Shown here in pieces: positions 20,301 to 54,525 of a DNA stretch of 64,000 nucleotides. The notes below the pieces were generated by a model that saw only the letters and a program-made list of their open reading frames with translations, was not told the DNA's origin and did no database searches. The stretch lies in assembly GCA_002269645.1 (NCBI GenBank), contig NIVC01003859.1, positions 9,441 through 73,440 on the forward strand, in the 5' to 3' direction. The position numbers were made by a program, and so were the translations under genes. This DNA comes from Macrostomum lignano (taxonomy: Eukaryota). The stretch's first letter is position 1; each line of letters starts with the position of its first letter.

Positions 20301-23300
20301 TTGCTTGGAATCGCAGTCACTGAACGGAACCGCCTCACCATCGAATGCGACTGTCTTGGCACCCTGGTCGATGCTGAACTGCGATCTGGCCGCCTTGCTC
20401 ACGAAATCCATCCCCAGGATGAAGTTTGGGCGAATCCCTCTGACCACCAGCACGTCCATTTGTCTGCGCAGCTGATGACTGAGTCGCACCGTAATGCTCA
20501 CGCTTCCTAACAGCTCGAGAACGGAGCCGTCCACGGACACAGGCCTGACATCTGCCGGCTTCAGCTCGCAGCGACCGTCTAGCTCTCTCAAAGCAACGTC
20601 GCTGATCAGCGAGGTCTGCGCTCCGGTGTCCAGCAGCCAGCGGCACGGCTTGCCGTTTGCCTCTCCAGGTATAAAAATAGCATGAAGCACGGGATTGCTC
20701 CTTGGGGTTGGTGTGGGTCCCGCACCCGTTGCACCAACCCTTAAAAGTTTCCCGGAGCCTTCGATGGGCAGACAGAGGCCTTGTGCCCCCGCCCAGAGCA
20801 CTTGTGGCAGATGATCGGACCCGGCTGTTTCTCTCGCTGCTGACATTGCGCTGCACGGTGTCCGAGCTGGCCGCAGTTGAAGCAGCCGCCTCCTCGCTGT
20901 TGACGGCGACGCCGAGTGTCAGTACCCGACTGTACGCTGACCCTCGCGATGAGCTCCTCCATGCGTTTCTCCAGTCGGTCCAGGCGGTCCTCGCTTGGTT
21001 CTGCCGATGATGTAGCGCTGACGGCTGCGACTGCCGCCACCGACTGTCGCCCAGCCAGCTCCTCCAGCCGAGCCGCCCGCTGCAGCAGAGTCTCCAGGCT
21101 GCAGGTCTCTGCGTCCTCTGCCTTAAGCAGGTTGTCACGAATGTCGGCCTTGAGCAGCTGCAGAAGCTTGAAGCGCACATCTCGGTCTCGCTGAGCAATT
21201 GAGTCCTCCGGTCTGGCTTTCTGGTGTAGCAGCTTCAGGTTAAAGCAGAGCTCACGCAGTGTCTCGGCATCTCCACGTTTCCTCGCATAGAAGTCGCTCA
21301 TGGCCTTAAAGCTGTCGGCTTCGCCTCCATAAAACTTTGTGAGGTCCTCCTTTATACTTTTAAAACTCTTTTGTCTTGTCTCGGCCAGGTCCCAGACGAC
21401 AAGTTGGGCTTCTCCCGTGAGCAGCAACTTCACCTTCGACGCTGAGGTCGCGTCGTCCCATTTCGCATCGTTGGCGAATTCCTCAAAGATGCGCAGCCAC
21501 TTTCTCACGTCAGTGCCGTCTGTTCCACTGAACTTTGGCGGTAGAAGGGTGTTCTGGGCCATGAGTGCACTTGCACTGGGTTCTCGCTGCCACCAATGTA
21601 AGAGCCGAGAATTTAGAGTAAGTTTACGAAGTATATTTTGATGCACGATAATTTACGAGCGATTAAATAGTCAGCGATGATAGATCGATTAAAGTGACTC
21701 ACCCAACTGGGGTGGTGGGCATGTACAGAGAAGAAAGCGAGATGCAAGTACATATACTAATAGAGCAGCCCCCACCCCGACGGCCCAAACCAAACGCAAC
21801 CCTACAATATTTTATATTCAGTAAACTTAGTATGAATATAGAAAGTGCAAAAATAGGCGAAATTTGCAGAATTTGATTGGTTTTGTCGTAACCAGCTTTG
21901 TTTTGTATTTCATGCGATTTTGCTGTCTTCACGCTGGCTATTCTCTCTCCCTTTAAACGAAAAATCCAGGCTAATTTATATTTACACTAATGCTTGTCTT
22001 CTGTCGTCTGTCCTATTTCTATAAAAAGTTCGTTTCTCATGGCGGGTGGGTTTCACAAACGCGAAATTTTGTTACCGCTAGAAGCAGTTGCTTTCATAAC
22101 CGCGAAACTTTCATTTAGCTATTGTGAAGTTTCGCGGTTGTTAAAGTAGGTAACATTTAGCGGTTTTGAAGTTTCGCGTTTGTAAATTACAACAAAAATT
22201 TAGCGGTTGTGAAGTCTCGCGTCTATGAAATTTAGCGCTTATAAAGTAGGTGATTTAGCGGTTGTAAAATTTTGCGTTTGTGAAAGCAACCCCTCATGGC
22301 TACTACTTGGTACTTTGTTCTTTTATATGTGCCGGGCATTCAACGCCTAAAATATTATTAAAAAACACAGTAAGCACTGCAGTAAATTTATTTAATCAAA
22401 GAACACCGGCTGTTTGCAGGGCCGTAGCGTGGCGCTCTTGTGTGCCAGGCTCGATTCCCAATTGCAGTCATTAATTTGGGGCAACATTGGAATCTCAGCT
22501 TGGGTCTGCTCGTGCAATTAACGCCCTTGAAGGCCAACCCCAAAGCATAGTGAAGTGTACATGCCTAACGATAGATAAAGTTAGGGCCGCTGTACACTCC
22601 TGTGTAGTGTGCCTGTGTGTGACTGCGTACTTATCCGCGCGCTTGTGTGCCTGTTCATGGAAGTCGGTGGAATGGGCAGCAATGCCTCTCGTTTAAAGTG
22701 CGCCAGAGTGCACACAGCCTCTAATAAAAAATATACCGGCTGTGTGCAGTAAAATATTTCTCTACCTAGTTCAATAACTAATGAAAAGTTAATTTGTTTT
22801 TTTTAGAAAGTTCTTGTTTAATACATTTATCCTCTAAAAATTCAATGCGTACTTTTATCTTTTTATGCTTCTGGGCAATGCAGCAGTTTCTGATTTGCTA
22901 CGTTTCATTTTCCTTAAACACACATTCAATGCATTCCAGGTGCTAGCGATTTAAAAATGTGATCTTATTGATACGTTTCAGATTGCCAGAGGACATCAGC
23001 AGCCTCAGCCACCTTGCCAATCTTACACTTAACGAATGCTCACTAAGGAAGCTGCCAAATACTCTCGGCAGGTGAGCTTTCTTATTGGCTTATGCTGAAT
23101 TCGCGTATATCTCGGTAGTACTGCTCATGCGCTCTTGTACCGAAATCAGCTTGTCAAGAACTTTTATGGACCAAAATTGTTATTACTATGTGTCTTATTA
23201 TGATTATGTATTATTTTGACACCTCCGAGTGCAAGGCCCCGTCACTCCAATGCTGTTATTTTTAAGACTGGGCAGCCTCTGTGTGCTGGAGGTCCGGGGC

Positions 23301-26030
23301 AACAAGCTCAGGTCGCTTCCTGCCTGCATCGGTCGTCTGAAGAGCCTGGAACGGCTGGATGCTGGTGAAAACGAGCTAGAATTGCTAGTAAGTACCTTCC
23401 GATTTTTGCTTAGTGCAGCACTATAGAAATAAAACTATCCAGGAATTTTTGTATTTTCGGCTAGTTTCTACTGTTCATACTGTTCAATTAATTGCTTTGT
23501 CCATTTCATGACAGTGACCAGCAACTTTTGTCCTCCCTTTTGACACCCAGCCAGAATCCTTTGGCGAGCTGCAAAGCCTGTGTGACTGCTGGCTGGACAA
23601 GAACCGCCTGTCTTGCCTGCCCGCGTCTATCGGCCAGCTGACCAGCCTCAGCTTCTTCGACTTGTCTGGAAACCGCATCGAGACCCTGCCGCACGAACTG
23701 GGCCTCTGCGCCGCCCTGTGTGATCTCAACTTGAGCGCCAATCTGCTGCGCTGCCTGCCAGACACCGTGGACGGACTGACTGGCCTGGCTGGCCTCCGGC
23801 TCGATGCCAACCGGCTGCTGCAGCTGCCGCAGAGCATCGGCCGTCTGTCCGCTCTATGTGACCTAAACATCAGCAGCAACCTGCTGGCCTGTCTGCCACC
23901 CACCATTGGCCTGCTGCGCCAGCTGCAAACTCTGCATGCCGACTGCAACCGGCTGACGGAGCTGCCCTCCAGCATCGGAAGCTGCTCCAGCCTCACAATT
24001 CTGTCTCTGCGAGCCAACCTGCTGAGGTTCGTGCCGGACGAGATCGGCCACCTGCAGGAGCTGCGGGTTCTGAACCTGAGTGCCAACAGGCTCGACTGCC
24101 TGCCAATCTCCATGCTGCGGCTGCCCGACCTGCAGGCTCTGTGGCTCAGCGACAACCAGACCGAACCGCTGCCCCGTCTGCAGCCCGAAGATGTCCTTGC
24201 AGGCAAGGCCGTTTTGCGGGTTCTCACTTGCTACCTGCTGCCCCAGCTGCCAGTTCCGCTGGCCACTCTCAGGGAGGAAGACGAGCTCGATGACTTCAAC
24301 TCCATGGAGAGGCAGCGCACCGTTCAGTTCGCTGTGGACGGCGGCGAATCACCCAGCGATGCCGCTGAGGACCGCCACCTGCCCAAGGATCTGCCCGACG
24401 GACGGCGGCGGGTCTGGGCCGCCTGCGTCCCCACATCCACGGAGCGAGTGGGCCTGGTATGTACCGAGTGGGATGCGTTGTCCATGTTTAAGCAGTTGAT
24501 CGAGTGTATTTGGCAGGGAGTTAGACAACTTCAGGCCTTAAAAATAAATTCCTAGTTGTATAGCTGCTCTAATTGCTTCTTTGCTGTGCCTAATAAAGTT
24601 TTTTTTTACCTTGGCTACTGTTGAGCGACAGTCATTTTATTCACGCTTGTGCCTGCTAACCGAGTATTTAATCTCATTACATCTAACCTCTAAAGTAATA
24701 CCAGCTAATTCGTGCCAACTAACTATAATCCCACTGAGCAGTCAACGGCTCTGGGTGTTCAGGCCAGCTGCCTGCGCCGGTGCTTGCCCTGCGTGACGTC
24801 AAATTCGAGCAGCGCCGAGTCTGCAGCCCATTATCTGCCTCACCTTCCAACTCTGGGGAATCCAGATGGAGTCACCACCGAGGTCGCCAACTCCCCGAGC
24901 GATGATGCTGCAAAAACGACTACTGCAGCCTCCCGGCAAAACCCGTTGGACCTGGTCAGCCCGCTGTCGACTTCGTCACCTCTAAGCGGCCACCAAGCAG
25001 TGAGCAATGGCTCAGATCCCAATAATAACAACAATGGAACTTCGGATGCGTACGAGATGGTTTTGCTGCAAGTACGAATGAAACTCATTTCGATTGGCTC
25101 AACTTATTTTTTAATTTAGGTGTGACGTTTGGCTTGAATTCCTAACCAATAATGGTTCGTTTTATTGTCGTTTTTCATTTATGTCACTATAAATTCCATT
25201 TAATGAAACTGCCCCTGCAGGATGCGACTCCCGTTGCCACAATCCGCATCAGACCTGGCGACCACTCGCACTCGCACCTCCGCCAGCACTACGGCTACGA
25301 CTCTGACGGGGGCTTGCCCGCCGCTCGTGTGCGCTCCCTACCCGCCACGGTCGCCCCGTTGTCAAGGCGCGGAAGCCATCCTGGCTCGCAGCTGCCGCCT
25401 ATCGCCCAGTCAGAGTCTGCGCTAACACCGCCGCTTCATCAGCCGCCGCCGCCGCCACCACCGCCGCCGCGTGGCCCTCACTGGCCCACCGCACCCTCCG
25501 GCCCCGCCGCCCCGATTGCAGTTCCTGAGGACTCCGCGAGCAGCGACAGCGGCTACGGTGGCCGCCGACCAGCCCCAGCGCCACCTCCCGCCAGGTCGCC
25601 GCCGCCACCCCCGCCTCAAATTCACAACCTGCCGCCTTCCAGCGGAATTCGCGTCCCACCAGTTCGCACTTCCACTGCCAGCGTTGCCGTTCTACCTGAT
25701 GCCGACTTTAGAAGTGGCGGCAGCTCAAGCGAGTTCAGTGTCCCAGTTGCCGCCGCTGCTAGCACTCTGCTGCTGTGGGTGACGATCGACCGCGGCCCGA
25801 CTCTCGGCTTCAGCGTGTCCGGTGGCGCCGACACTGCCGAAGGTGGCGTATTCGTATCCCGCCTCCTGCCCAACTGCCCCGCCTCGGACCTGCTGAGGTT
25901 TGGGGATCGAATCCTGCAGGTGAACGAAATGCCATTTGGCGGTCTGAGCCACTCTGAGGCAGTGCAGTTCTTGAAGGCACAGGGCAGAGTGCGGCTGCTA
26001 ATCCAGCGCTCTGTATCATCAGAGCCGTGA
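11367..26030 (+). CDS. LAP-family scaffold (Erbin/Densin-180/Lap1-like): LRR array, LAPSD and a single C-terminal PDZ; 8 coding exons
   Basis: Phase-compatible GT-AG exons: 11367-11534, 11630-11747, 11818-11896, 22982-23071, 23267-23387, 23551-24456, ~24742/24763-25071, 25221-26030. Motifs: LEVLLLDHNKLTELRK, ALWLSDNQTEPLPRLQ...LTCYLLPQ (LAPSD), LGFSVSGG...GDRILQVN (PDZ). Exon 7 boundaries are uncertain. Confidence 0.9.
11970..12179 (-). repeat. LTR 1 (3' LTR)
   Basis: 210 bp, TGTA...TACA ends, appears identical to the other two copies. Confidence 0.95.
12287..15939 (-). pseudogene. pol: Pol of unit 1 (PR-RT-RNase H-IN), split by a 1-nt deletion
   Basis: GG at 13281-13282 versus GGG at 18094-18096 in unit 2 splits it into the 952-aa and 341-aa ORFs. 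Confidence 0.9.
15927..16748 (-). CDS. gag: Gag of unit 1 (273 aa from MAQNTLLPPKF)
   Basis: Two CCHC knuckles, CFNCGQLGHRAAQC and CHKCSGRGHKASVC. ATG lies just after the PBS. Confidence 0.93.
   Translation of the reverse strand: MAQNTLLPPKFSGTDGTDVRKWLRIFEEFANDAKWDDATSASKVKLLLTGEAQLVVWDLAETRQKSFKSIKEDLTKFYGGEADSFKAMSDFYAKKRGDAETLRELCFNLKLLHQKARPEDSIAQRDRDVRFKLLQLLKADIRDNLLKAEDAETCSLETLLQRAARLEELAGRQSVAAVAAVSATSSAEPSEDRLDRLEKRMEELIARVSVQSGTDTRRRRQQRGGGCFNCGQLGHRAAQCQQREKQPGPIICHKCSGRGHKASVCPSKAPGNF
16783..16992 (-). repeat. LTR 2 (shared central LTR)
   Basis: On the minus strand it is preceded by the PPT of one unit and followed by the PBS of the next. Confidence 0.95.
17100..20753 (-). CDS. 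pol: Intact Pol of unit 2 (PR-RT-RNase H-IN), expressed by -1 frameshift
   Basis: LLDTGAQTS protease, YIDD RT, DSS...TDRELLAI RNase H, HHCC plus DDE integrase and a GPF tail. ORF 17100-20846 is uninterrupted. Confidence 0.95.
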   Translation of the reverse strand, partial: GKLLRVGATGAGPTPTPRSNPVLHAIFIPGEANGKPCRWLLDTGAQTSLISDVALRELDGRCELKPADVRPVSVDGSVLELLGSVSITVRLSHQLRRQMDVLVVRGIRPNFILGMDFVSKAARSQFSIDQGAKTVAFDGEAVPFSDCDSKQDGPLSCCLVPTVIIARVQGAVVVPPRSVKVVDVTTETKQAHGIFEPSQEFIDRIGVLPGRVFAVSSESGKIPVQVCNLSCSPVTLFSNQSIGTFESAEVIDEDEDVHEWRGPADQFNINPELPEEDSNRLAMLLRAFADVVSVHEFDVGTSSAAQHKIELDDGARPIRQRPRRVPHAFRRQVDEKLEQMRQHGVIEPSTSPWASNLIIVRKKNNDIRVCVDWRALNNLTVKDAHPLPHLHQALDSLAGCSWFSTIDMRQGFLQVEVREEDRPLTAFYTPSGLMQFRKMGFGMCNAPATYQRMMELIMTGLSWEEVIAYIDDLIIFNRDFENHVQSLSKVLHRLRSAKLKLNPGKSFFAYRSVTYLGHQVSESGIAPAAEKVEAIRRMPEPQSEEDVRRIIGMLSFYRRFVPNFSDIAKPLHHLAQKGAGGGFVWTSEHAAVLNKLKDALTQAPVLQLPDFSRPIVISCDSSAVALGAVLSQERDGQELPVAYASRTLSKAERNYSTTDRELLAIVWSLKQFRMYLSNSCKIQVFTDHKPITGLLNAKEPTGRLARWLQLIQEFPLEILYRPGKENIVPDTLSRAAAVQFQIANLPDEQDQDQVLHAVRHAMLQPNFQVPAAVSASVLKLLPCLTLSPDGALLHNGLPVIPQHMRAELLQQAHDRPSAGHLGQRRVLRALRERSWWPDMREDVRDWVRSCLVCQRRKGAPKRARAELVRQPLPAKPWAVMQLDIKGPLPVTESGKRYIICFVDPFSKWVEAAALSQIDATTVAEALVTCVVLRHGVPGVVHSDQGRQFEAEVFKQTCALLGAEKSRTSPFHPSGNGNVERFNRTLGNMLSAFCSENQASWDALLPYVVWAYSSSEHSSTGESPFKVLRGIEPRLPVDLALGGQRDQPQDCADLQARIRRGFQVVRAHLHTAQKSQHEFYNLGAETTDFKTGDRVMLTHHAMKRGQCKSLSSRWSGPFIVLKKVSPVNYRLQAVNGRRRLLVHHDRLKRFIDRPNLSGRPPAKPATEDDCQSVEDAAGQLAGPDAWEPLRNLDAAEPGNTVRRSGRQRRRPDFYTATC
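20741..21562 (-). CDS. gag: Gag of unit 2
   Basis: Same as unit 1 except one K-to-R change. Confidence 0.93.
   Translation of the reverse strand: MAQNTLLPPKFSGTDGTDVRKWLRIFEEFANDAKWDDATSASKVKLLLTGEAQLVVWDLAETRQKSFKSIKEDLTKFYGGEADSFKAMSDFYARKRGDAETLRELCFNLKLLHQKARPEDSIAQRDRDVRFKLLQLLKADIRDNLLKAEDAETCSLETLLQRAARLEELAGRQSVAAVAAVSATSSAEPSEDRLDRLEKRMEELIARVSVQSGTDTRRRRQQRGGGCFNCGQLGHRAAQCQQREKQPGPIICHKCSGRGHKASVCPSKAPGNF
21597..21806 (-). repeat. LTR 3 (5' LTR)
   Basis: 210 bp, followed by the PBS; TSD ATAT lies outside it. Confidence 0.95.
22044..22292. mobile_element. 249-bp MITE with GG-starting TIRs and 8-bp TSD (Merlin-like signature)
   Basis: TSD CTCATGGC at 22036-22043 and 22293-22300. 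Imperfect ~26-bp TIR (GGGTGGGTTTCACAAACGC / GCGTTTGTGAAAGCAACCC) and internal GAAGTTTCGCG-type repeats. Confidence 0.75.
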
Positions 26031-28620: not shown

Positions 28621-29737
28621 CCCTTGTGTCATAAGCTCCGCTCCCACATCTGTAACAATCACGAAAAGTTTGCTGAGAGACTGAAAATTTTTCCGGAGGT
28701 ATTGTTTGTTGATGAAAGTGTCACTCTGATGTTCGATTTGCGTTGTAAATTCTCGCCATTGAAGACGGAAACGGTGAAAATGAGGTTGTTGTGTTTTGTT
28801 CCTGGAATCAGAGACCAAATGCGCGATAACTGCTGTCGTCGACAAACAATGCAGCTAGGAGCCCTGGTCACTGCCGGCGGTGCGCGGCCTACGCTTAGCG
28901 CCCAGGCCCTGAAACACGCCCTGTTAGGTGTGACATTGCATGTCACAAGCATGACTGGCTGACAACGTATATTTTGTAGTTATTGAACTAAGAACTCTGT
29001 ACGAGTACAATACATATTACGTACATTAATTAATATTCAACAATTGAGCAATTTAAAAACTCTCTGGCGTGAAAAAAATAATTGTGAAATCTCGATTCAA
29101 GTATTACAGAATGTGTAAAGAATATACATACATGTAGGTTGTATGTAATAATGTAATATGAATGATAATATTCGGCTCGTACGTAACTATTAGATGCACA
29201 TGTACATCTACTACGAGCTACATGTCTATATATTTATAGTTATTGATGGGTTTTGGCCTTTTCGGCTCCCTTGCGGGAAGCTTTCGGCAGGTCTCAGAAA
29301 TAAATCAATTAGAGTCCCGGCCTCCCACTCCAGTCAGATTGGTCTGTGGCGTCCCGCAAGGGAGTCCGCAATGGTCAGCCCCATGGTAGCTTGATCTGTG
29401 GCGAGCAGTCTAGGTCCTATATAGCTAAGAGAGGGACAGCGAGAGACAATTGCAGGGAGAATTTTGAAGGTAGAGATCAGCTAATCCACAGATTAACTAT
29501 AACCCGCTGCCACCAGCCCGTGCGAGATCGAAATTCGACTTTCGAAATCGGGCTTCCGCCTAGAAGGGGCTTAGCGCTTACCTTGCCAACTAGTGTCTTT
29601 TTGCTGTCAATCTCGAAGTCATAGCCGATGTTAATTGGGACACTGCTGGGACTTGATCGCATTGGCCATGAAGGTACAGAGGGGACTCGTTCAGGGGATT
29701 CTTGCAGTGGCGGGACTATATGGGATAGCTACATGTA

Positions 29738-30777
29738 TGATGGGTTCGGCCTTTTTAAGCCTCGCTGTAGCTTCGGGCCTCAGAACTCAGAAATGAACTT
29801 AAAGCTCTGGCCTCTCACTCCTGTCAGATGGTCAGCCCCGTGGTAGCTAGATTGTGGGCGAGCAGCAAGGTCCTATAGCTAAGAGAAGACAGCGAGACAA
29901 GCAGCGGAGAATTTGAAAGGTAGAGATTAGCTAATCCACAGATTAACTATCCCGCTGCCACCAGTCCGTGCGCTCCGGCTCGCCAATTAACCGGAGCTAT
30001 CGAAATCGGACTTCCAACTAGAGGGGCACTGCACTTACCTGCCATCTAGTGTCTTTTAGCTGTTTATATCTCGAAGTCATAGCCGAATGGAAGGGACGCT
30101 GCTGGGACTAGGATCGCATTGGCCATGCAGGGACGAGAGGACTTTTGCAGGGGGTTCTTGCGCTGGCGAGCCTTTATACACTACTAAATGTACTGAAGTG
30201 ATCTTAATTTAAGCATGTTATGCCCAATGTTATTTTTTAGTCTAATGCGAACTTCAGAAGGTTTTTCTATCAGGAAAGTACAGCACATGCTTGTGCGCCA
30301 GTAAAGATCCTATTGCGTGAAGCGAACACCAATGAAATGCGTTATAGAAATCTATATATACTAGCGTTCAGTGAGAATGAAGCCTCTCCCCAGTTTTTCC
30401 CGGTTCTCGGCTCTCCGCCTCTTTGCCTCCTCAACTGCTCCGCTAGCTTGCCCCAACAATCGGGCCTGAACTCTAATATCCCGATTTAACAGAGGTAAAT
30501 CCGGACAAACGTCAATTCGTGCAACAATATCGATAAGTAGCCTGTGGCTCCATTTTCACTGAATTGCTTAACAAATTTGCGTAATTGCGTGATCAATATC
30601 CTATTAGGAATTGCTACTAACATTGATTAGTAATAAACATCTTATTGAAGGTTAGAGATCGAGAGAAACAAATCGAACCTCCGACTTATTTGATTCAACA
30701 GAAACATCAACGATCATAGTCATCGCATCGAAGCAAAATGTGCGGTTTTAAGATTGAAAAAAGATGCGTCCTCATCA
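29738..30777 (-). mobile_element. Related 1040-bp solo LTR inserted in the host LTR
   Basis: Starts TGATGGG and ends CCTCATCA like the host. TSD TGTA (29734-29737 and 30778-30781). The first ~440 bp are a diverged copy of 29244-29733. Confidence 0.8.
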
Positions 30778-31263
30778 TGTACTATTAAATTGCTAAATAC
30801 GAGGAATTGTACTTTTGGCCTTCAACGCGCCAACCAGCCTCTCGTAGCGCTGATATGATAGGCTAACTCGAACATCAGAGACCGCATGATTCACTACCCG
30901 AGCCGCTTGGCGAATCTAAGGTGCACAGAAGTACATCTCTAGCGCCGATACTGCACTATTGGCAACCTTGCTAACTGATTTGATAGATTGATCGATTGAG
31001 AACTGCCTTGCCATTGGTCCACTATGACCGGCGCCTACTAGTTTAGCCACTCATCCGAGCCATCGGCGAACAAAGCAATAAAACTGATAAAAAACACTGC
31101 CAGATTTAACCTACTCTCTAAATCACTTCACACCTCAGATTGAATTGGAGTAATCAGACTACTATCAGTATTGAATGATTTCCGCCTCGATAACAGCACT
31201 GCTGAACAAAATGAGCAAAAGTGTGCGCCTAATCCAGCTACTGAAACAGAGGACAGATAAGGA

Positions 31264-31683
31264 AGTAGAAGGCATGAGGGGGCTTTTGGGACAAAATTTT
31301 TCACGTCCTCCATAATCCACCTAAATCCATCCATATTATCCCTGACAGAATCAGAAAAAAAGGGGGGTCGCACTCGCTCACAAAACGTCCTCCATAATCC
31401 CATTAAATCCATCCATATTATCCCTGACAGAATCATGAAAAAGGGGAGGGGCCGCACTTGCTCTGAAAACTTCGAACATAATCCTATTAAATCCATCCAT
31501 ATTATCCCCGACAGAATCAGACAGTGGACACCTGTTATACTCACTGACACTGACATAATCCACTAACATCCACCCAGAAACAATCAGAAAATAATCTGCA
31601 TTCTTCTCCCCACATTCAATCCGCAACGTGCTACCAGATCCCTAAGACTTTAAATTATCAGCGCAGGGTCCTTACCCTTTGAA
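31264..31683 (+). repeat. Left TIR of the Polinton
   Basis: Inverse of 45100-45559; three internal ATCCATCCATATTATCCCYGACAGAATCA repeats. Confidence 0.93.
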
Positions 31684-31705
31684 AAAAATTAAATTTTCTC
31701 TAAAA

Positions 31706-31948
31706 ATGTTTCCAGTTGTCTCTCCAGGTTCCTATTATACTCAGCCTCATCCATTGTACAAATCCAAGTACCGATGCAAACTTGAATGCAGCGAGTACAT
31801 GAGAAAATATTGGCCCGACGTTGATATCAATGTCCCTAATATTAATCTAGCTCTCCAAAGACACTGGTTTCATAAGTATGGAGTAACCTATGTAAAAGAT
31901 TACGACAGCTACTATAACTTTGCAGAAATCATTAAGCAATTGCGTTAA
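31706..31948 (+). CDS. Small Polinton ORF (80 aa), unknown function
   Basis: AAAAATG start context like the other Polinton genes; no recognised motif. Confidence 0.45.
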   Translation: MFPVVSPGSYYTQPHPLYKSKYRCKLECSEYMRKYWPDVDINVPNINLALQRHWFHKYGVTYVKDYDSYYNFAEIIKQLR

Positions 31949-32247
31949 AAAACCGAAAGGCCAAAAGGCCAAAAGGCCAAAAGGCCAAAACCCTTTTCAT
32001 TTTGGCCTTGCGCGAGGCCGAAATCGTTTGCATTCTGGCCTTCACTCGAGACGGAATTCTTCCTCGGCTGGGCTCAGTTAAAGTGAAAATCTCTCTCCCC
32101 CCACGCGCGCTGCGCCCACACACATACACTCCCCTCTCTCCCACGCACGCGAGGCCCACGCCCTCATTTGAGTACACATAGTAAGTTCTCTTCATACCAC
32201 TCTATTTTCGGTAAGCATACGAGCTACTTAAAAGGGAACGCATTTTC

Positions 32248-33111
32248 TCACATTCTCTCAATGTTCAACGTCAATACAAACTCTTCACCGTTGAAATCAA
32301 CACCCATCCCATCTTCAGTCTCAAACTGTAGCACAATCTCGTGAATCTCCTTATTACTCAATACAACTCTTTTCACTGGATTTGGTTTCTCTACCACCAT
32401 CTGTCCTCCAGCTACAGAGTTGGAGATGTTGTACAAAATATTAGTTCGCTTTCCCTTAAATACCCAATCAAGACTGAGATTAGTTCTGATTAGAATATTC
32501 AAACCCTTTACAATGTCTGCTATATTGGGTGCTAAGAACAAACCGCGTACACTTTCCCGGGCCATGATAACAGCCCCCGTCGCTTGAGTGGCGGTCCGCG
32601 CCGCGGATTCTGCCTTATAAACTTTCTTCTCGAATCCCAGTTCCCTATACCAAGTGTCATCTTTAAACTCAACCTCCGCATCTTTGTGAACTTGCATGAC
32701 CACTCTCATTACAGTGAGATCATAGGTTAGTTTGACAGGGAACAGTTTTTTCTCTGGCTTACTCATATCAGGTGTCTCAAAATGGCCTCTTTTAGTAAAG
32801 ACGTTTTCTAGAAAGTAATTGTAGGTATCCACACTTTGCGTGCTCACAGGGAATACCACAGGTTCTGCTGCTGCACCTTTCCATTTGTAATAAAACTTAT
32901 TATTTGCTGCCGTCACATTGGGAACGTTTGACCAACCAGTGAAGTCGTTAAGATAGACATGGTAATTAGCACCTGGATCCAGGCGAATCGCCTGCTCTAA
33001 TTTTTGAATAAATATCCCGTTTGAGTCATTAATTCGCCCAGTTATTGTAATAGGAATGCTCTCCTTGGAGTGCGAAATAATATTATTTAGTCTTTCAGCA
33101 ATCGCTTCCAT
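32248..33111 (-). CDS. Minor capsid protein (penton, single jelly-roll)
   Basis: Directly downstream of the MCP. Motifs WSNVPNVTAANNKFYY and C-terminal EIHEIVLQFETEDGMGVDFNGE resemble Polinton pentons. Confidence 0.8.
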   Translation of the reverse strand: MEAIAERLNNIISHSKESIPITITGRINDSNGIFIQKLEQAIRLDPGANYHVYLNDFTGWSNVPNVTAANNKFYYKWKGAAAEPVVFPVSTQSVDTYNYFLENVFTKRGHFETPDMSKPEKKLFPVKLTYDLTVMRVVMQVHKDAEVEFKDDTWYRELGFEKKVYKAESAARTATQATGAVIMARESVRGLFLAPNIADIVKGLNILIRTNLSLDWVFKGKRTNILYNISNSVAGGQMVVEKPNPVKRVVLSNKEIHEIVLQFETEDGMGVDFNGEEFVLTLNIERM

Positions 33112-33132
33112 TTTTTCACCCACAAAAAATAT

Positions 33133-43294: not shown

Positions 43295-43815
43295 TTCTCT
43301 CTCCACTTGTGTGGAGCGAAAAGAAGCGAAGGCCAAAAGGCCAGAACGCAAAGGATTTTGGCCTCGAGTAAGGCCAAATTTTATCGCAAACTGGCCTTTT
43401 GGCCTTCGCTTCGCTTTTCTCCACACAAGTGTACAGTCTTGAGCACACTGGTTTCGGCTACAATCTCTCTTTCCACCATGCTTCTCCTTCATGCTCCTCA
43501 CCTCCTCACCCTATGCTTTGTCTATAGAGAAGTCTCACCCCTCACATTCACACACCTCATGTTCTCTCGTACACTGAGCTATATCGATTGTTTTTCCCTG
43601 CTTGACTCCAAGATTGTACAGTCTGGAATTTTCTAGAATTTTCTACGGCTAGCTGTATTTAAGCAAACACAGAAACACTCGGGCTGCTTCTCCCCACATA
43701 TGCCCTCAACTGCTACTGATAAACGGCGACTGCGAACTTAAATTCGCCCACGCTGAAAGTGATCTAAGAAATCGTCCGCCAAACTAGAAGATTAGAAGAC
43801 AAGAAGATTTAGAAA

Positions 43816-44493
43816 ATGGAAGTCGAGTGGAATCTTCATTTGACAGATAAGCAAGGCCTTTGTGCCATGCTACAAAGAGTTTTACAGTATATTCCGTCGC
43901 ATCTACAAGCAAGAAGAAGGGAGGAACTAACCACCTTTTTCGGTCTAGAAACTGGCGACCTACCAATCGAGTTTTTCGCCATGGCCCCTGATGATATCGC
44001 CGCAGCGAATGAAGCGCAAAATGTGAGTAGCGAAGAGAAGAAGGCGGCGGCTCTGCAGAAGAAGATGGCGGATCTGCAGATATTCAGGGAGAAGTTGTAC
44101 GCATCCCGCGTAACACTAGCTGATCAGCTGATGGACGTTGTTGATCACCAGCTTCCATCTGGCGAGCAGAACATCATCACTAGGGTGAAGGCGGCTCTAG
44201 CAAAATACAAGAAGACTCAAATTGGAGGTCTACATTGGATTCTCGAAGTTGGGCGGCTGCTAAAAACTTATCGCACCGAGAACTTTGGACAAGATGTTAA
44301 AGTGCGGTTCGCCCATTTGTGTAAAAATGTAAACATCCAGGAATCAACTGGCTATTTGTACATTCGTCTGTACAAACTGTCTGTTACCTACCCAGGCTTG
44401 AGACAGGTGTCAATGCCAATTAGGGAACTAAACTCTAAGATGAAGTTTCTAGAAGAAATTTTGGCCAGTGATCCTGCGTGGAAAGTTGTGTAA
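43816..44493 (+). CDS. Polinton ORF (225 aa), unknown; C-terminus is helix-turn-helix-like
   Basis: Open ORF with ordinary composition. ILEVGRLL...STGYLYIRLY loosely resembles DUF3102-type domains (unverified). Confidence 0.6.
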   Translation: MEVEWNLHLTDKQGLCAMLQRVLQYIPSHLQARRREELTTFFGLETGDLPIEFFAMAPDDIAAANEAQNVSSEEKKAAALQKKMADLQIFREKLYASRVTLADQLMDVVDHQLPSGEQNIITRVKAALAKYKKTQIGGLHWILEVGRLLKTYRTENFGQDVKVRFAHLCKNVNIQESTGYLYIRLYKLSVTYPGLRQVSMPIRELNSKMKFLEEILASDPAWKVV

Positions 44494-45099
44494 TTTTTAA
44501 ATTCAGTTCATTTAGAATTTTTCTAACGCGTTATATTTTAGAATTTCAAAGAGAAGATTCAACAACTGGAGACAGCCGATTGGTTAAGTAGAGGAGGGTA
44601 GCAATTTTCTCAGTACTGTGTGCAACTCAGTCAATGGGTTTTAAATTCTAACGCTGCTAGAAATTTCTATGTGAAAAGTTTCCCGCAAGATAAGCTTGGG
44701 CACACCAAATTTTCACATAGAAAATTCTAACGCGTTAGAGAATCTAGCTGCTGGCTCAAAGAAACGCTAGGCTGGCTCTGTATGGTTAAATAGAGGGGGG
44801 TAGAAATTTTCTAACGCCGTTAGAATTTTCTATGTGAAAAGCTTCCCGCAAGATAAGCTTGGGCACACCAAATTTTCACATAGAAAATTCTAACGCGTTA
44901 GAGAATCTAGCTGCTGGCTCAAAGGAACGCTAGGCTGGCTCTGTATGTTGTTGAAGAATTCTAACTCAGATCCTACATAGTGTCTGTTTTTTCTACCATT
45001 TTTGATAATCTTGTAATAGTTGATACATATCCTATCAGCTGTGCAACTGTTAATAAATATATAATTCTTACTAATGAATAATAAAATTATTTATATTTC

Positions 45100-45559
45100 T
45101 TCAATGGGTAAGGACCCTGCGCTGATAATTTAAAGTCTTAGGGATCTGGTAGCACGTTGCGAATTGAATGTGGGGAGAAGAATGCAGATTATTTTCTGAT
45201 TGTTTTAGAAATGTTATGGGTAGATGTCGGTGGATGATGTCAGTGTCAGTGAGCATAACAGGTGTCCACAGTGAGCATAACAGGTATCAGTTGACACCTG
45301 CTCTGATTCTGTCAGGGATAATATGGATGGATTTAATGGGATTATGTTCGAAGTTTTCGGAGCAAGTGCGGCCCCTCCCCTTTTTCATGATTCTGTCAGG
45401 GATAATATGGATGGATTTAATGGGATTATGGAGGACGTTTTGTGAGCGAGTGCGACCCCCCTTTTTTTCTGATTCTGTCAGGGATAATATGGATGGATTT
45501 AGGTGGATTATGGAGGACGTGAAAAATTTTGTCCCAAAAGCCCCTTCATGCCTTCTACT
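45100..45559 (-). repeat. Right TIR of the Polinton
   Basis: Inverse of the left TIR with scattered substitutions and a ~35-bp local duplication near 45250-45300. Confidence 0.93.
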
Positions 45560-45815
45560 TAAGGAATCACCCAATCAAGCAAGTCTAGGTAGCCTCTCAC
45601 CCAACCAATCAGAAACTCCACAGCCGGATTCCAGGTAATCCACAGTGACCGATTCGGCTTAGTACTTCGCAGCAGTAGGTCCGGGATGATGCTGTCACAA
45701 CCTTCGCAAATAGCTAGCAGGTGTTGATCTTATCCTTGATGATCGTTGCTGTTTACCAGGGGAAATTCGTCCTTGATGATGATGGGGGGTAGTCGCGATC
45801 CGGGGATCAAGACAC

Positions 45816-48521
45816 TGATGAGGATGCACTTTTCCCAAATTCCACGCTAGCGCATGGGCTCTAAACTTGCTAGCCTACTAACAGCAGGTTATGGGCATTT
45901 TTCTCCTTTTTTCGTAATTTTTCTAGAATTCATACTAGTAGGACTTTTGTAGCTATATGAATCTGCCATACTTGTAGTTATAATAACATAGGCGCGGTTT
46001 TTTTGCTACCTTTGGGGTCATAAATCATTGCTTTTGAGCTGGTCTGACAGCCACCTGCGCCTCACTCAGTGTTGAGACTGGCGCCAGATGGTCTGAGAGG
46101 ATGTGAGCGGTAGCTTTTTTCTCATCATTTTGACAGGCCATCAAAATATATGAGGTCAGGGCCTATTGTTCGTGTTCACTCAAGCGTTTGACAGCTTTGA
46201 CAGCTATGCGTTTTACCCCTAAAAGTACTTTGGGATTAGCGATTAGCAATTTCTCTTCATTATCTTCACTTTCTGCCTAATAAGAGCTTTCTAATGTATA
46301 TTTTTTCATTAACTCATTTTAAGCTCATTTTAACAAATCGGCTCAGCCAATCAGAATCGACGTGTTCCATTATAACAAACTGCGGTCCAGTTGGCGGCTA
46401 TTTAAACCGGTGTTTTTGGCCCGCTCGCACTTCAACCTGCGGTTACCCTGGTACCGGTTCAACCACTGCAAACCCTTTCTGGAGACCGGCCAGGAACTTG
46501 CTCTATCTGACCGTCGTTTCTTGATCCCCGGATTGCAACTCCCCCCACCATCATCAAGGACGAATTCCCCCGGTCATCAGCAGTGAACATCAAAGTCGAG
46601 AGCATCACCTGCTAGCTATCTGCGAAGGTTGTGACATCAGCATCATCCCGGGTCTACAGCTACGAAGCACTAAGCCGATTCGGTCACTGTGGATTACCCG
46701 GTCTCCGGCTGTTGAGTTTCTGATTGTGATGAGGACGCACTTTTTTCCAAACCCCGCGCTAGCACATGGGCTCTAAACTTACTAGCCTACTAACAGTGGG
46801 CAATGGGCATTTTTATCCTTTTTCTGCGAATTTTCATAGAATCTATACTAGATATAATGTCTGGTCATACTATGTAGTCATAATAACATAGGCGCAGCTT
46901 TTTGGGTCATAAATCATCGCTTTCGAAGCTGGTCTGACAGCCACCTGCGCCTCCCTCAGTGTTGAGGCGGGCGCCAGATGGTCTGAGAGGATGCGGGCGG
47001 TAGCTTTTTCTCATCATTTTGACAGGCCATCAAGATTTATGAGGTCAGAGCCTATTGTTCGTGTTCACTCAAGCGTGTGACAGCTTTGACAGCTATGCGT
47101 TTTACCCCTAAAAGTACCTTGGGATTAGCGATTAGTGATTTCTCTTCATTATCTTCACTTTCTATTTAATAAGAGCTTTCTAATGTATATATTTTTTCAT
47201 TAATTTCTGTCAATCCTACGCGAAAAGTCATAAATCATTTTGTTGCGATTTTTTTTGATTTATGGCCGCACCTGTCATCTTTTTACGACCCTGTGGGAAC
47301 TGATAGGATCTCCCGGTCACGTGATTCTGGGTGGCAACAAGCTTAGCCAATCAGAAAATTCGGCGCTCATTTTAACAAATCGGCTCAGCCAATCAGAATC
47401 GACGTGTTCCATTATAACAAACTGCGGTCCAGTTGGCGGCTATTTCCGTAGCATCATCCCGGGTCTACAGCTGCGAAGCACTAAGCCGATTCGGTCACTG
47501 TGGATTACCTGGTCTCCGGCTGTTGAGTTTCTGATTGGTTGGGTGAGAGGCTATCTAGACTTGCTTGATTGGGTGATTCCCTGTCTGTCCCCTGCTTCAG
47601 TAGCTGGATTAGGCGCACACTTTTGCTCTTTTTGTTCAGTAGTGCTGTTGCTGAGGCAGAAGTCATTCAATAATACTGCTAGTAGTCTAAACTCCAATTC
47701 AATCTGAAGTGTGAAGTGATCTAAGGAGAAGGTTAAATCTAACAGTTATTTTTATCGGTTTTATTTCTTTGTTCGCCGATGGCTCGGATGAGTGGCTAAG
47801 CTAGTAGGCGCCGGTCATAGTGGACCAATGGCAAGGCAGTTCTCAGTCGATCAATCTATCAAATCAGTTAGCAAAATTGCCAGTAGTGCAGTATCGGCGC
47901 CAGAGATGTATTTTGTGCACTCTAGGTTCGCCAAGCGGCTCGGGTAATGAATCATGCGGTCTCTGAAGTTCGAGTTAGTCTATCATCAGCGCTATGAGAG
48001 GCTAGTTGGCGCGTTGAAGGCCAAAAATGCAATTCTTCGTATTTAGCAATGTGATAGTACATGTAACTACCCCATAGTCTCGCAACTGCAAGAATCCCCT
48101 GCACAAGTCCCCTCTGTACCTCATGGCCAATGCGATCTAGTCCAAGCAGTGTCCCAATTAACATTGGCTATGACTTCGAGATTGACAGCAAAAAGACACT
48201 AGTTGGCAGGTAAGTGCAAAGCCCCTTCTAGTCGGAAGCCCGATTTCGAGAGTCCCGGTGTGGTGAGCCAGGATCCGTACGGGTTGGTGGCAGCGAGTTA
48301 GCTAACCTACGGGTTAACTAATTTCTACCTTCAAAATTCTCCCTGCTTGTCTCTCGCTGTCCCTCTCTTAGCTATAGGACCTAGACTGCTCGCCACAGAT
48401 CAAGCTACCATGGGGCTGACCATCTGACAGGAGTGGGGGGCCAGGACTCTAATTGATTTATTTCTGAGACCTGACGCCCGAAGGCTTCCCCACAAGGGGG
48501 CCATAAGTTCGAAACCCATCA
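45816..48521 (+). mobile_element. Same-family LTR insertion in the opposite orientation: partial LTR (45816-46726) plus near-full LTR (46727-48521)
   Basis: Starts TGATGAGG, ends CCCATCA, TSD ACAC (45812-45815 and 48522-48525). A second TGATGAGG start lies at 46727. Confidence 0.85.
46347..46406 (+). promoter_or_regulatory. LTR promoter (CCAAT box plus TATA-like element)
   Basis: CCAAT at 46347 and TATTTAAA at 46399. The homologous host-LTR site on the minus strand reads TATATAAA (48603-48610) with two CCAAT boxes. Confidence 0.55.
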
Positions 48522-49329
48522 ACACGACGGTCGAGCTCCGGGAACTAGAAGTTGCGTGCTGGGTCCGAGCAGGTTGAGGTCCGAGCGGGCCGAGAACACT
48601 GGTTTATATAGCCGCCAACTGGACCGCAATTTGTTAGAATGAAACACCTCGACGCTGATTGGCTGAGCCGATTTGTTATAACTGACGTCGAATTTTCTGA
48701 TTGGCTGAGCTTGTTGCCGCCTAAACTCACGTGACCAGAAGATCCTATCAGTTCCCTCGGGGCCATAAAAATACGTACGCCAGGTGTTGTCGTAAATCAC
48801 TCAAAATCATTGCATATGGCCTGTCAAAAATGATGAGAAAAAAGCTACCGCCCGCATCCTCTCAGACCATCTGGCGCCCAGCCTCAACACTGAGTGAGGC
48901 GCAGGTGGCTGTCAGACCAGCTCAAAAGCAATGATTTATGACCCCAAAAGTAGCAAAAACTGCACCTATAGTATTATAACTACAAGTATGGCAAAATCAT
49001 ATAGTTAAAAAGATTATGAATTCTAGAAAAATTACATAAAAAGGAGAAAAATACCCATGTTAGTAGGCTAGCAAGTTTGGAGCCCATGTGCGAGCGTGAA
49101 ATTTGGAAAAAAGTGCGTCCTCATCATTATACTTTAATACTTTTACACAAAATATCTATTAAACGAAGACGGTGACATCAATTAGTTATCATCAAAATGT
49201 GTAAGTTGCACGCATACTGTATGAATTCGCGTGATATTACGGTTTTTTAATGCTTGCTAGCCCAGTTGCTTATTTTGCTAATGATGAGTATTTATACTCA
49301 TTTACATGTACATACTATGGTTCGTGCAG

Positions 49330-49860: not shown

Positions 49861-52248
49861 CCATTTGGAAGCCAAAGGCCTGCACTGCAGGCCATACCGA
49901 AACGGCTCAAAAACCCAGAGATTGAAAAATGTCTATGGCATGAAAAACCATCCCCCAGTCACTAAAGCAAGTGCCCAATATGGCCTGCTGTGCAGGTCAT
50001 GATTAATTTAAAGAAGCCCTGCATAATGCATTTCCGTTATGTTTTCACTCAAATGTTAAATGTGAAATAAGCGTGCACAGTGAAAACATGAGGTGATGCA
50101 CAAATTTATGGTCGTATTAAATTTTAATCTCCTCACTACTGACCTACGAGTATTAGTATTAGTATTAGTATAGTATTAGTATTAGTATAACTAGTTTTAA
50201 ACAAATACAAAATTTAACTGCATGGTTCCAAACAAAACAAGGACATGAAAAGAAAAGTGTAACAGGGTTCAAGTTAGGAGACGCCAATGCAGGATCGCTC
50301 GTGGGACTTCAATGTGTCTCGTGCCAGATCCTGAAGCATGGATCTGGACAGAGACCAGGATTTCCGGGACAGTGGCTGCAGCAAAATACTGTCTTCTTAG
50401 CTGGAACGTCAGGTTTCAAAGAGCACATTCGGCATCGTTTGCTTGGGCGAGCCTGGGCTTCCGTTGCTGGGAGTCTCATCGGTGAATGAATTGGACGGTT
50501 AGCCTGCATCGGGGCTGGAACCTGAGTCGGTGGCCGAGCGCGTCCCGGTCCTGAGTTGCGGATCAGCGTCTTGATACTATTCTCTAGGAAAGTCAAAAAT
50601 TTGGCTGTCCCACCACATTTCTTGTACAGCGTCCAAGCGTTTCGTACAAGCGTGAGAATCAGGTGAAACGCGACTTTCTGGAACCATTTGTAGGACTTAC
50701 GATTTGGATGGTAGAGATGCACGGACGCATCAAGTCGATCAACACCGCCCATGTTGCGATTGTACTGGATGACAGCCGTTGGCTTCGGAATTTGATCAAC
50801 TTGACCACCGCGACGAACTCTGCGAACATCAGTGCAAGCGGCAGGCATGCTTGTGTCCAGAAGGTAGACAACCTTTGTTCCCGAGGCCTTTCTGTCTGCT
50901 AGCTTGATAGCGAGTGTCTGATTGCACCTCATGAAGCCCTGACCCGGAGCAACCACTAATTTTTCTTGCAATTCTCTCGGGATTCCACGATCCTTTTGAA
51001 CAGTCCCGGTGAGCAAGGCCTTTTTTTCAAACAAGTAGATAGCCAATCTGTGTGATGTAAACCAACTATCCGTGTATATGTGGTATCCTTCACCCAGTAG
51101 TTCGCGGCTAAGCTCAACAACGACTCGTTCGCTCATGGAGAGCTCATCGCATTGGAGACCGGCACCGAAGGTTGCGTGTTCGGCCTCAACAGAATGCAGC
51201 AGGAAATTCCACAGGTATCCCGTCGTGGACTCAGTCAGACAATACAGTTTGATGCCGTACTTTGCCTTCTTGCTTGGAATATACTGCTTCAGCAGAAGTC
51301 TCCCCTTGTATAGAATCAGCGTCTCATCGATGGCGACATCCTGCTCTGGTCGATAGGTTTCGCGACAAATTCGGCTAATCAAGTCCAGAAAAGGCCTTAC
51401 TTTGCACAGTGGGTCGTTGATATCGAACTCTCGGCAGTCGTAGCACCGGAAGTAGGCCAGTAGCTGAGGAAATCGCCAACGGGGAAGGCTCTCGGCTTGC
51501 TGAAAATATGGATTCCGATACATGACGTCTGTGGACCAGTAGTGGCGTATGGTCGGCTTGCTGTTGATGCCCATGAAGAGCACCATGCCCAGAAACTTTT
51601 TCATCTCGGCCACACAGCATGGTTTAAGAGCAGACAGTCCAGCAGGCAACTCTTCCTCGCCAGTTTCTGCACTCTCCTGCTGAAACTCCCTGACTGACAA
51701 CCACATTCTCTCATTGGTCCATGTGACAAGACTGGTGAGAAACGCTTCAGTCAGGAAGATTGATAAAAATTCCGCCATACTTTCGTCTGGATTTTCTGGC
51801 AGATCGATGCTTGGATTGATGGTCGAAAACCCTCGGAATTCCGGCACCCGGTCGTGGTCAAACGAGTTGTCACTTCCAGGGGCTACTTCAACCCATTCCG
51901 CGGCCGCCTCATCTTGGCTCTGATCAGTTTCTGGATCCATGCTTTCCGACTCCGTTTCTGACTCAAAAACCGTCGACTCATCGCTTGATAAAGCGTCATC
52001 CGAATCGGAATCGAGTCCCAGTCTGCGCAATGCGTCACTTTTAGCTGTCCTTTTCGGGCGCGTAGAAGCCATTTGTGAGTAGGAAGGTTTGAACAGGAGC
52101 TGGCAGAAAAACTCTGTGGTATACTTTACTTCTGGGCTTTTAGGGTGTGCACTCGATTCAGAAAAAAAGACAAATTTGTCTATGGACTGCTCTGCAGGCC
52201 TTTGGGCTTTTAAGCGATCTTACAGAACCAAGCTTGGGCGCGAAGTGG
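49861..52248 (-). mobile_element. piggyBac DNA transposon, 2388 bp, apparently complete
   Basis: TTAA at 49857-49860 and 52249-52252, both ends TTAA-CCA. Subterminal inverted motif CCAAAGGCCTGCA at ~49872 and ~52205. Confidence 0.9.
50309..52072 (-). CDS. piggyBac transposase, 587 aa
   Basis: Acidic N-terminus, DDD triad (VAIDETL, YTDSWFTS, MGGVDRLD) and C-terminal Cys-rich domain CRMC...CSHC...CPDPC...H. Confidence 0.95.
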   Translation of the reverse strand: MASTRPKRTAKSDALRRLGLDSDSDDALSSDESTVFESETESESMDPETDQSQDEAAAEWVEVAPGSDNSFDHDRVPEFRGFSTINPSIDLPENPDESMAEFLSIFLTEAFLTSLVTWTNERMWLSVREFQQESAETGEEELPAGLSALKPCCVAEMKKFLGMVLFMGINSKPTIRHYWSTDVMYRNPYFQQAESLPRWRFPQLLAYFRCYDCREFDINDPLCKVRPFLDLISRICRETYRPEQDVAIDETLILYKGRLLLKQYIPSKKAKYGIKLYCLTESTTGYLWNFLLHSVEAEHATFGAGLQCDELSMSERVVVELSRELLGEGYHIYTDSWFTSHRLAIYLFEKKALLTGTVQKDRGIPRELQEKLVVAPGQGFMRCNQTLAIKLADRKASGTKVVYLLDTSMPAACTDVRRVRRGGQVDQIPKPTAVIQYNRNMGGVDRLDASVHLYHPNRKSYKWFQKVAFHLILTLVRNAWTLYKKCGGTAKFLTFLENSIKTLIRNSGPGRARPPTQVPAPMQANRPIHSPMRLPATEAQARPSKRCRMCSLKPDVPAKKTVFCCSHCPGNPGLCPDPCFRIWHETH

Positions 52249-53277: not shown

Positions 53278-54525
53278 TCACTCACAGTTCGAGCAGACTT
53301 CGGATGCAGCAGCTCCGGTCAGCTTTGCCCGCCACTTACGGCAGCGGTGCAGGCAGTAGCGGCACATCTGGCAGAAGAACACGGCGCCCAGTAGCCACAT
53401 GACGGCCGCACCCAGACGGCCCAGCAGATCGGTGCGCGGGTTCAACCAGTAGGACACTGCCAGGCAGCTACCCAGACAGAGCCGCAGGATGCCGAATGTA
53501 CTGAAGAAGGCGAGCTCAACTGCCAGTAGCTGCCATGTATGCGACTGGCCCCGCTCCCGCATGAACCAGCGCAGCTGCAGGAGCGGGTTGGTCAGCTCTG
53601 AGCCTCCAACAGTGGCTGCCAGCTCTGGACCCCATTTTCCTGCAGCCAGAGCCACTGAGAGACCAAGAATGCTGGCGCAGTGATGGAACAACATTACCAG
53701 GCCTTCAGTGTCGAAGTACAGACACCAGAGCAGGTCGAACAGAAAGTAGCCAAGGCATGCAATAAAGAGGACTCTTTCGAGTAGCGTTTGGGCCAAACCT
53801 ATAATGTATATAATGTAAACATTATAGGCAAAATAAGTCTGCAATCTAGGACACAATGCACTTCTCAACTTTTCCCTATGCTGTTAATTTATATTTTAAG
53901 TTAGGAATTTCCTCAGCGTTCCTTGCCTTGAAATTTTCTCAGACCTTCATCCCCCGTATTCCAAACCTTTAGTGTATGCCACTGCCGCGTCTGAAGACAT
54001 TCAGTAGGTGCTCATTCATGTATGGGGGCAAACTTGGACTTACCTAGCTGTTTGAACTGGCAACTACTGGTGACTGGTGATTTTGTACTGGTGAGTAGCT
54101 ATCGGATGAGAGCAGTCCCTTAACTGCTCCGTCCAATAGCGACCTAAATGTGAATCTGAGCTTCAGTATTTCAGAGGGTTTCGCTTCCAACTACTTACAG
54201 TAGGTGCCCCTCCCTAGTCTTACTACCAAACAGTTAAGCAAGACGCACCTTGATACTTGTGATAAAACGCGTTTCTCCCTGTCACAAAGGTGTCAAACAA
54301 GGCTAGCCCTGAGACCAGGAAGGCGTGGGCCACAGTCACTAGACGGCAGTGCCACTCGTACCTGTGCTTTGGCAGGGAGTAGCACAGGAACATGTAAACT
54401 GAACACCACAGCAGGAACGCTCCCAGCACCTGCACAATCAGCCAACTGTACTGCACAGAGCAGCGGTCGCCATGGAAACTGGCAAGGGTTTCCCTAAAAA
54501 GCCAGGCAACTAAAGCACTAGCCAT
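53278..54525 (-). CDS. TLCD5: TLC-domain membrane protein TLCD5/TMEM136 orthologue, 2 coding exons
   Basis: Exons 54525-54249 and 53798-53278 joined by a phase-1 GT-AG intron. Motifs YEWHCRLVT, GYFLFDLLWC, EGLVMLFHH and GSELTNPLLQLRWF match TMEM136. The start codon is uncertain. Confidence 0.88.

Follow-up and report, generated by a model that had tools for sequence, protein, structure and literature searches.

Here, we present an analysis of a nest of transposable elements at positions 29244..49126 of a 64,000-nucleotide stretch of the Macrostomum lignano genome (contig NIVC01003859.1; this whole stretch is the window). The nest has grown within a solo long terminal repeat (LTR), and some of the inserted elements (guests) are kin of this host. 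We conclude that the nest mainly represents common transposon nesting in an extreme form and that a regional insertion preference together with a local sink is probably its best explanation. On this reading, a non-autonomous gag-protease family left the host behind as an old solo LTR in a gap that has absorbed many insertions. This explanation is supported by the mixed nature of the guests (four of seven are not kin), by two extra insertions beside the host, and by a 3-5-fold clustering of family copies; moreover, among 10 close pairs of copies, only one was a true nest and six were neighbours within 500 bp. Mechanistically, an integrase borrowed from an autonomous helper would insert again and again into favoured regions, every insert would widen the neutral target, and LTR-LTR recombination would cut kin guests down to solo LTRs. 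The kin excess at this nest would then represent the extreme tail of the regional preference, picked by a scan for striking windows.

Layers of the nest and their alleles

The host, an LTR of subfamily A on the minus strand, measures 1,827 bp without its inserts and is flanked by a target-site duplication (TSD) of TTAT (29240..29243 and 49127-49130) that matches letter for letter. The original prediction described a ~1.83-kb solo LTR enlarged by a related LTR, a Polinton and an own-family LTR in reverse, and each of these layers was recovered: TGTA flanks 29738..30777 letter for letter, TAAGGA flanks 31264..45559 exactly, and ACAC flanks 45816..48521 exactly, the last insert lying on the strand opposite to the host. 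The predicted LTR ends TGATG...CATCA are likewise present. The pieces of the host line up in order with natural family copies of 2.0 kb. Relative to natural copy L049, the 3' end piece (29244..29737, minus strand) corresponds to ~1996-1537 and finishes in the first TGTA, the middle piece (30782..31263, minus strand) to ~1542-1056 and finishes in the first TAAGGA, and the next piece (45566..45815, minus strand) to ~1055-810 and finishes in the first ACAC. The 5' part, or U3 region (48526..49126, minus strand), lacks ~190-210 bp compared with full copies and contains CCAAT boxes at 48700-48704 and 48658-48662 and a TATA-like motif at 48603-48611. The family LTR reads in the direction TGATGAGG...AACCCATCA. 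Based on promoter motifs, the primer-binding site (PBS) and the polypurine tract (PPT), the host and guest 1 are therefore on the minus strand and guests 4 and 5 (B1 and B2) on the plus strand.

Guest 1 (29738..30777, minus strand) is a kin LTR of subfamily B that retains only positions 1-54 and ~1552-2007. Within it lies guest 2 (30194..30723, plus strand), which had been missed when four inserts were counted. It begins TGAAGTG, lacks its last ~45 bp, and matches no copy of the host family; copies that are 98-99% identical, whose ends are LTR-like and which carry a PPT and a flank resembling a PBS, occur elsewhere, often paired 12.8 kb apart. Guest 2 is an LTR of an unrelated family (family C) that inserted into guest 1 and was later partly deleted together with 1.5 kb of its host; its second TSD is gone along with this deletion. 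Family C itself (L238, L239, L240) has a ~575-bp LTR, pairs 12.8 kb apart and a PPT resembling that of the host family; its PBS presumably corresponds to tRNA-Asp. Guest 3 is the Polinton (31264..45559; 14,296 bp).

Guest 4 (B1; 45816..46726, plus strand) is a kin LTR of subfamily A that consists of the 5' part 1-1014 without 476-636 and ends in ATTG. At this ATTG (position 1014 of B1), and in the same orientation, begins guest 5, the younger kin LTR B2 (46727..48521, plus strand); the ACAC pair flanks B1 and B2 together. The insert had been read as a single LTR, itself doubled. B1 and B2 are only 85% alike across the 5' 500 bp and each resembles a different subfamily (the best relatives are 93% identical for B1 and 97-98% for the 5' part of B2); therefore, B2 is a further insertion at ATTG, the third of a kin LTR and from a younger subfamily, rather than a duplicate. 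Tandem duplication and gene conversion were considered for B1/B2 and rejected; an 81-bp block of 100% identity is uninformative on this point because it is the conserved promoter core, which was at least 97% identical in 72 of 152 matches. B2 lacks 718-926, which cuts the TATA box, and no second TSD was found at its end. Its 3' part is probably a B2/B1 hybrid closed by the ACAC of B1: recombination with the 3' part of the host copy would have removed the second TSD, resulting in a "one and a half LTR" design. A second arrangement of part LTR plus whole LTR occurs in contig C130 (L099; with equal spacing in C2067), where a subfamily B copy sits at +177 of an A copy and the structure is closed by the TSD of the host copy. 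Because guest 2 and B2 each lost one TSD copy, both copies are kept in four of six events, and not in every event as had been proposed.

The locus is present on four contigs of one assembly that form two haplotype groups. Contig C2023 (99.6-100% identical) has the Polinton, interrupted by a 5.7-kb long interspersed nuclear element (LINE), and lacks 47533-47619 as well as a piggyBac-like element found in the window. The LINE (L012 5784 to L013 1531) encodes endonuclease, reverse transcriptase (RT) and RNase H, has a 13-bp TSD and lies within the Polinton ATPase gene. C3378 and C4568 (99.2-99.5% identical; C4568 covers the right junction only) have a single TAAGGA and no Polinton, and in C3378 an unrelated Gypsy element enters at 30205, with 30206-30904 lost. 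The host, guest 1, the guest 2 stub and B1/B2 are common to both haplotype groups, while the Polinton, Gypsy, LINE and piggyBac are not; thus, the kin layers predate the Polinton, Gypsy and LINE. Summed over the alleles, there are seven guests, of which three are kin and four are not. Two further polymorphic insertions lie in the gap outside the LTR. One is the piggyBac (49861-52248); the other, 11 kb long, sits at 28324 in C3378.

A gag-protease family without reverse transcriptase

The 5'-end pattern of the family has 879 exact matches in the assembly, and a control pattern has none; a guessed 3'-end pattern gave only 9 matches. Among 68 long loci, 30 are copies of 1.9-2.1 kb with an exact 4-bp TSD, and they fall into the two subfamilies A and B. 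A TGG search gave 33 matches, 19 of which have an identical PBS behind the 3' end, and the complement of this PBS is the end of tRNA-Leu genes (two called among four stretches scanned). An Rfam search of L237 gave no match. Whole elements are found in C847 (TTTC/TTTC) and C380 (CTTA/CTTA), with LTR pairs that are 99.7% and 99.5% alike, and the PPT AAATAG(G)nCATA lies ahead of the 3' LTR in C847, C380 and C151. The family is a true LTR retroelement. A non-autonomous DNA transposon with short terminal inverted repeats (TIRs) and a 4-bp TSD was considered, since most copies of the family stand alone, and is ruled out by the PBS, the PPT and the paired LTRs.

Read end to end, three interiors contain a 2.5-kb leader, gag and protease. 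Neither Pfam nor tblastn (the latter without a positive control) detected RT, RNase H or integrase in them, and the frame ends after the protease in the 14 closest matches. Leads on the superfamily were faint (PNMA, E 0.009; gag-asp protease, E 5e-4; Atlas gag clusters, 0.86-0.88), and no gag homolog was found at E 0.001 among proteins of near length. The family works like a non-autonomous derivative of probable Ty3/Gypsy descent, there being no RT to place it in a superfamily. The autonomous element that the original prediction had proposed to look for was not found; the next gag-protease family likewise stops after the protease. This second family (L183-L196), with 40% protease identity and ~45 places among the matches listed, suggests that gag-protease elements devoid of RT may form a wider group in this genome. 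In the C847 element, a 372-amino-acid (aa) frame without a Pfam match follows the protease (L151 3022-4137).

The LTRs have kept promoter motifs, with at least two CCAAT boxes in 27 of 30 full copies and a TATA-like motif in 21 of 30. Downstream of the TATA box, a splice-donor-like CAGGTAAGT (position 1683 of the L049 LTR) occurs in 26 of 30 full LTRs and in both subfamilies. Judging from this motif, solo LTRs could start chimeric host transcripts by way of CAGGTAAGT.

Gag-only non-autonomous LTR retrotransposons (TR-GAG and the like) have LTRs, a PBS, a PPT and gag, lack RT and integrase, and require a helper. The M. lignano family shares all of these structural features, no RT or integrase having been found in its interiors. 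In contrast to TR-GAG-like elements, it has 2-kb LTRs, an interior of 5.5-9 kb with a 2.5-kb leader, a protease in a second frame and an animal host, and its solo LTRs outnumber the PBS-bearing elements (~879 ends to at least 19). In the main texts searched, which leave most subscription journals outside, we found no description of this gag-protease family or of a self-targeting animal LTR family. The published survey of Macrostomum LTR elements begins, in its available text, from RT and therefore would miss a family without RT (PMC12801592).

Insertion sites of the family

We determined where family copies insert from a sample of 110 distinct 5' ends (107 of them independent), drawn in the order in which they were listed. 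This enrichment test, suggested by the original prediction and here run on a sample, was positive in part: two of 110 ends lie inside family sequence versus 0.13-0.32 expected (P 0.007-0.04; 95% range 0.2-6.4%), but the other 108 lie outside. For another two of the 110, family sequence occurs upstream at a distance of at most 500 bp. Pairs of 5' ends were counted among 769 of the 879 ends, leaving out the four focal contigs and without edge correction. At 0-4 kb, there were 6 opposite-strand and 8 same-strand pairs versus 1.55 expected each; at 4-15 kb, 14 and 17 versus 4.25; and at 15-50 kb, 15 and 18 versus 13.5. The same-strand pairs include the LTR pairs of whole elements, and among the unopened pairs 4-15 kb apart, some nests in enlarged hosts may have gone uncounted. 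Altogether, family copies cluster 3-5-fold within 15 kb in either orientation.

Of the 10 close pairs that were fetched, one is a nest (C1046, TSD GTAG), six are neighbours at 131-412 bp, one is separated by 1.8 kb, and two were dropped. C3095 was first called a nest and then kept as a neighbour, the 412 bp between its copies having no family match; the pair counts by distance were made while it still counted as a nest, and the nest and neighbour counts were revised afterwards. C3/C4281 (a fold-back pair), C666 (a segment in tandem) and C2038 (a second end after a PPT) are in neither count. Including C130/C2067, nests with both ends listed amount to 3 contigs and 2 loci versus 0.77 expected (P 0.04 and 0.18), whereas neighbours just outside a kin LTR number 6 versus 0.39 expected. 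The idea that the family targets its own LTRs finds weak support in a ~3-4-fold enrichment inside them by the pair counts, but this does not exceed the 3-5-fold clustering that extends to 15 kb and falls short of the excess just outside kin LTRs. The proposed alternative, a hotspot, fits better, but it would lie more in the location than in the sequence of the LTR.

The sites themselves show that the family prefers locally AT-rich positions without a fixed motif. Thirty TSDs comprise 26 different words. At the two central TSD bases, A or T occurs in 84% and 89%, and the flanks of the target have a local GC content of 35%, compared with 47% for the LTR. Neither a tRNA gene nor a shared host repeat was found in 110 upstream and 30 downstream flanks. 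Within family LTRs, 11 non-family inserts in nine of 68 loci compare with one kin insert.

Several observations weigh against regional preference and a local sink as the full explanation. Three kin guests in a single host are far more than this explanation accounts for, 0.0002-0.016 such loci being expected among ~600 at any uniform rate measured. Cases inside or within 500 bp of a kin LTR number 9 versus 1.16, above even a 3.5-fold regional rate (P 0.02; 0.055 without C250), and gaps of 500-2000 bp hold only one. Finally, kin make up 3 of 7 guests at the nest versus 1 of 12 elsewhere (P 0.016). All of these counts are small and inflated by haplotype copies.

Ty1/Ty3, Ty5 and Tf1 integrate by tethering, which would place insertions a few hundred bases from the bound site, like the neighbour pairs observed here. 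By analogy, factors bound at the CCAAT and TATA motifs of the LTR promoter, or chromatin opened by them, could draw new family insertions inside the LTR or to within ~0.5 kb of it, mainly on the U3 side, and so build self-reinforcing clusters; we regard this as possible but doubtful. The six neighbours at 131-412 bp, another at 456 bp (C38) and the near-empty interval of 500-2000 bp argue for it, as does the conservation of the promoter motifs. In C1880 and C250, empty alleles reveal that the more recent copy entered upstream of the 5' end of an older one, at distances of 131 and 165 bp, and identity ranks suggest a like order at C799 and C1637. However, C3095 and C3758 are neighbours on the 3' side, the two copies of a pair may have hit one small AT-rich patch (the gaps have 21-52% GC), the excess over the regional rate is borderline (P 0.02-0.055) on small numbers, and no integrase was found in the elements of the family. 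In contrast to Ty1/Ty3, no tRNA gene lies in the sampled flanks, and no tether was identified. We would only tentatively entertain the corresponding model, in which promoter-bound factors draw insertions of the gag-protease family into its earlier LTRs or to a point 130-460 bp upstream of U3, each solo LTR thereby becoming the seed of a self-growing nest, with this locus as an end product.

A rather unlikely explanation is retention after insertion, by which a silenced, low-recombination or PIWI-interacting RNA (piRNA) cluster-like trap would keep the inserts of active families. Ten insertions over the alleles in a gap otherwise of ~5 kb, and the loss of promoter or coding parts from most guests, are consistent with such a trap. 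Nevertheless, the guests have mixed orientations, the gap is bordered at 3-4 kb by genes with long open frames, and deletions and recombination clearly happen at the locus. Sequence-specific self-targeting, in which the integrase recognises a site in the family LTR as a safe haven, is very improbable and largely refuted. The three kin guests and the further nests in C1046, C130/C2067 and C87 could be read in its favour, but 108 of 110 sampled ends are outside family sequence, most copies do not lie at a recurrent site in their own sequence, and neither the kin insert positions in their hosts (~177, 454, 810, 1014, 1540 and 1805) nor the TSDs recur; per base, insertions are also more frequent beside a kin LTR than inside it (2 of 8 inside versus two thirds expected, P 0.02). 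Collapsed or chimeric repeats in the assembly are hardly credible: although no contig or other piece among those listed spans the whole nest and all four contigs are from one assembly, there are four TSD pairs, an empty Polinton allele, "doubled" halves just 85% alike, the same LTR layers on four contigs in two haplotype groups, and short-read contigs that bridge the left end (run X1, which may be the source sample), host/B1 (X1, X3) and B2/host (X3) junctions.

In plants, certain Ty3/Gypsy families insert into their own older members, which has been put down to shared niches and waves of expansion; in the available text of that study, LTRs are rarely hit in intact elements and the term "solo LTR" does not occur (PMC6911290). 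In contrast to this autoinsertion as described there, the hosts here are 2-kb animal solo LTRs, and the excess beside the LTR is as great as that inside it. Insertion of one transposon into another is also common and uneven in the human genome, as far as the available part of that report goes, with hotspots at fixed target positions (PMC2836564); here, no position recurs among six mapped kin sites.

The Polinton, the surrounding gap and their meaning

The Polinton has ends AGTAG...CTACT, TIRs of ~430-470 bp and a 6-bp TSD. Its open reading frames (ORFs) include one of 294 aa without a Pfam match (32248..33132, minus strand), which by size and position we infer to be the minor capsid protein; a major capsid-like (double jelly-roll) ORF (33133..34422, minus strand; PF21738, E 6e-5, under the curated cut-off); the packaging ATPase (36082..37068, plus strand; PF04665, above the cut-off), which the LINE splits in C2023; pPolB (38334..40832, minus strand; PF03175), which covers model positions 10-315 of 468 only and is truncated; an ORF with an adenovirus pX-like domain (41343..41804, minus strand; PF05829); an rve integrase (41818..42831, minus strand; PF00665); and a PLA2-like ORF (42836..43294, plus strand; PF08398). 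Other Polinton copies diverge at 38423/38424 and 40832-40842, in the pPolB region. None of 13 ORFs scanned in this copy matched the adenain protease. In the region 43207-45207, which includes an orphan frame of 226 aa along with a repeat of 163 bp, the summed contig depth is far below that of the rest of the Polinton, and it is probably carried by few Polinton copies. As described in the accessible parts of the literature on Polintons and adintoviruses, the element shares with them the TIRs, 6-bp TSD, length (14.3 kb in a range of 13-25 kb), pPolB, rve integrase, ATPase, capsid-like ORFs and the PLA2 and pX domains; it differs from them in its truncated pPolB and the absence of a protease match, and from adintoviruses in that PLA2 and pX are separate ORFs on opposite strands instead of one PLA2X gene (PMC8502044; 10.1101/2023.08.22.554363). 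The element is a Polinton/Maverick by these features and a defective copy of a multi-copy family.

The nest sits between the 3' ends of two convergent genes, i.e. a gene with LRR and PDZ exons (23518-26030, plus strand), which we take to be Scribble/Erbin-like, and a TLC-domain gene (53278-53883, minus strand). The piggyBac-like element in this gap (49861-52248) has a TTAA TSD and a 636-aa transposase frame and is absent from C2023, C3378 and C4568. The 11-kb insert of C3378 (L015 5428 to L016 6704) has repeated ends and minisatellites; its ends are presumably Helitron-like. Elsewhere in the window, 11970-21806 is a Gypsy element in tandem, with three 210-bp LTRs, two interiors that are 99.9% identical, a TSD of ATAT and a broken pol frame in the left unit (976 versus 1272 aa); it may be a real dimer or an assembly duplication. 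An AT-rich element with 221-bp inverted ends that are 98% alike occupies 4810-8683.

The locus provides a clean, datable example of how serial insertion enlarges a 5-kb intergenic gap, and a single assembly holds both its filled and its empty alleles. In addition, it brings to light a large LTR family without RT that would escape RT-first annotation. If a full count upholds the short-range excess beside kin LTRs, the family would offer a testable instance in which old promoters of an animal retroelement steer its new insertions, and such guidance would bear on the origin of transposon-dense islands.

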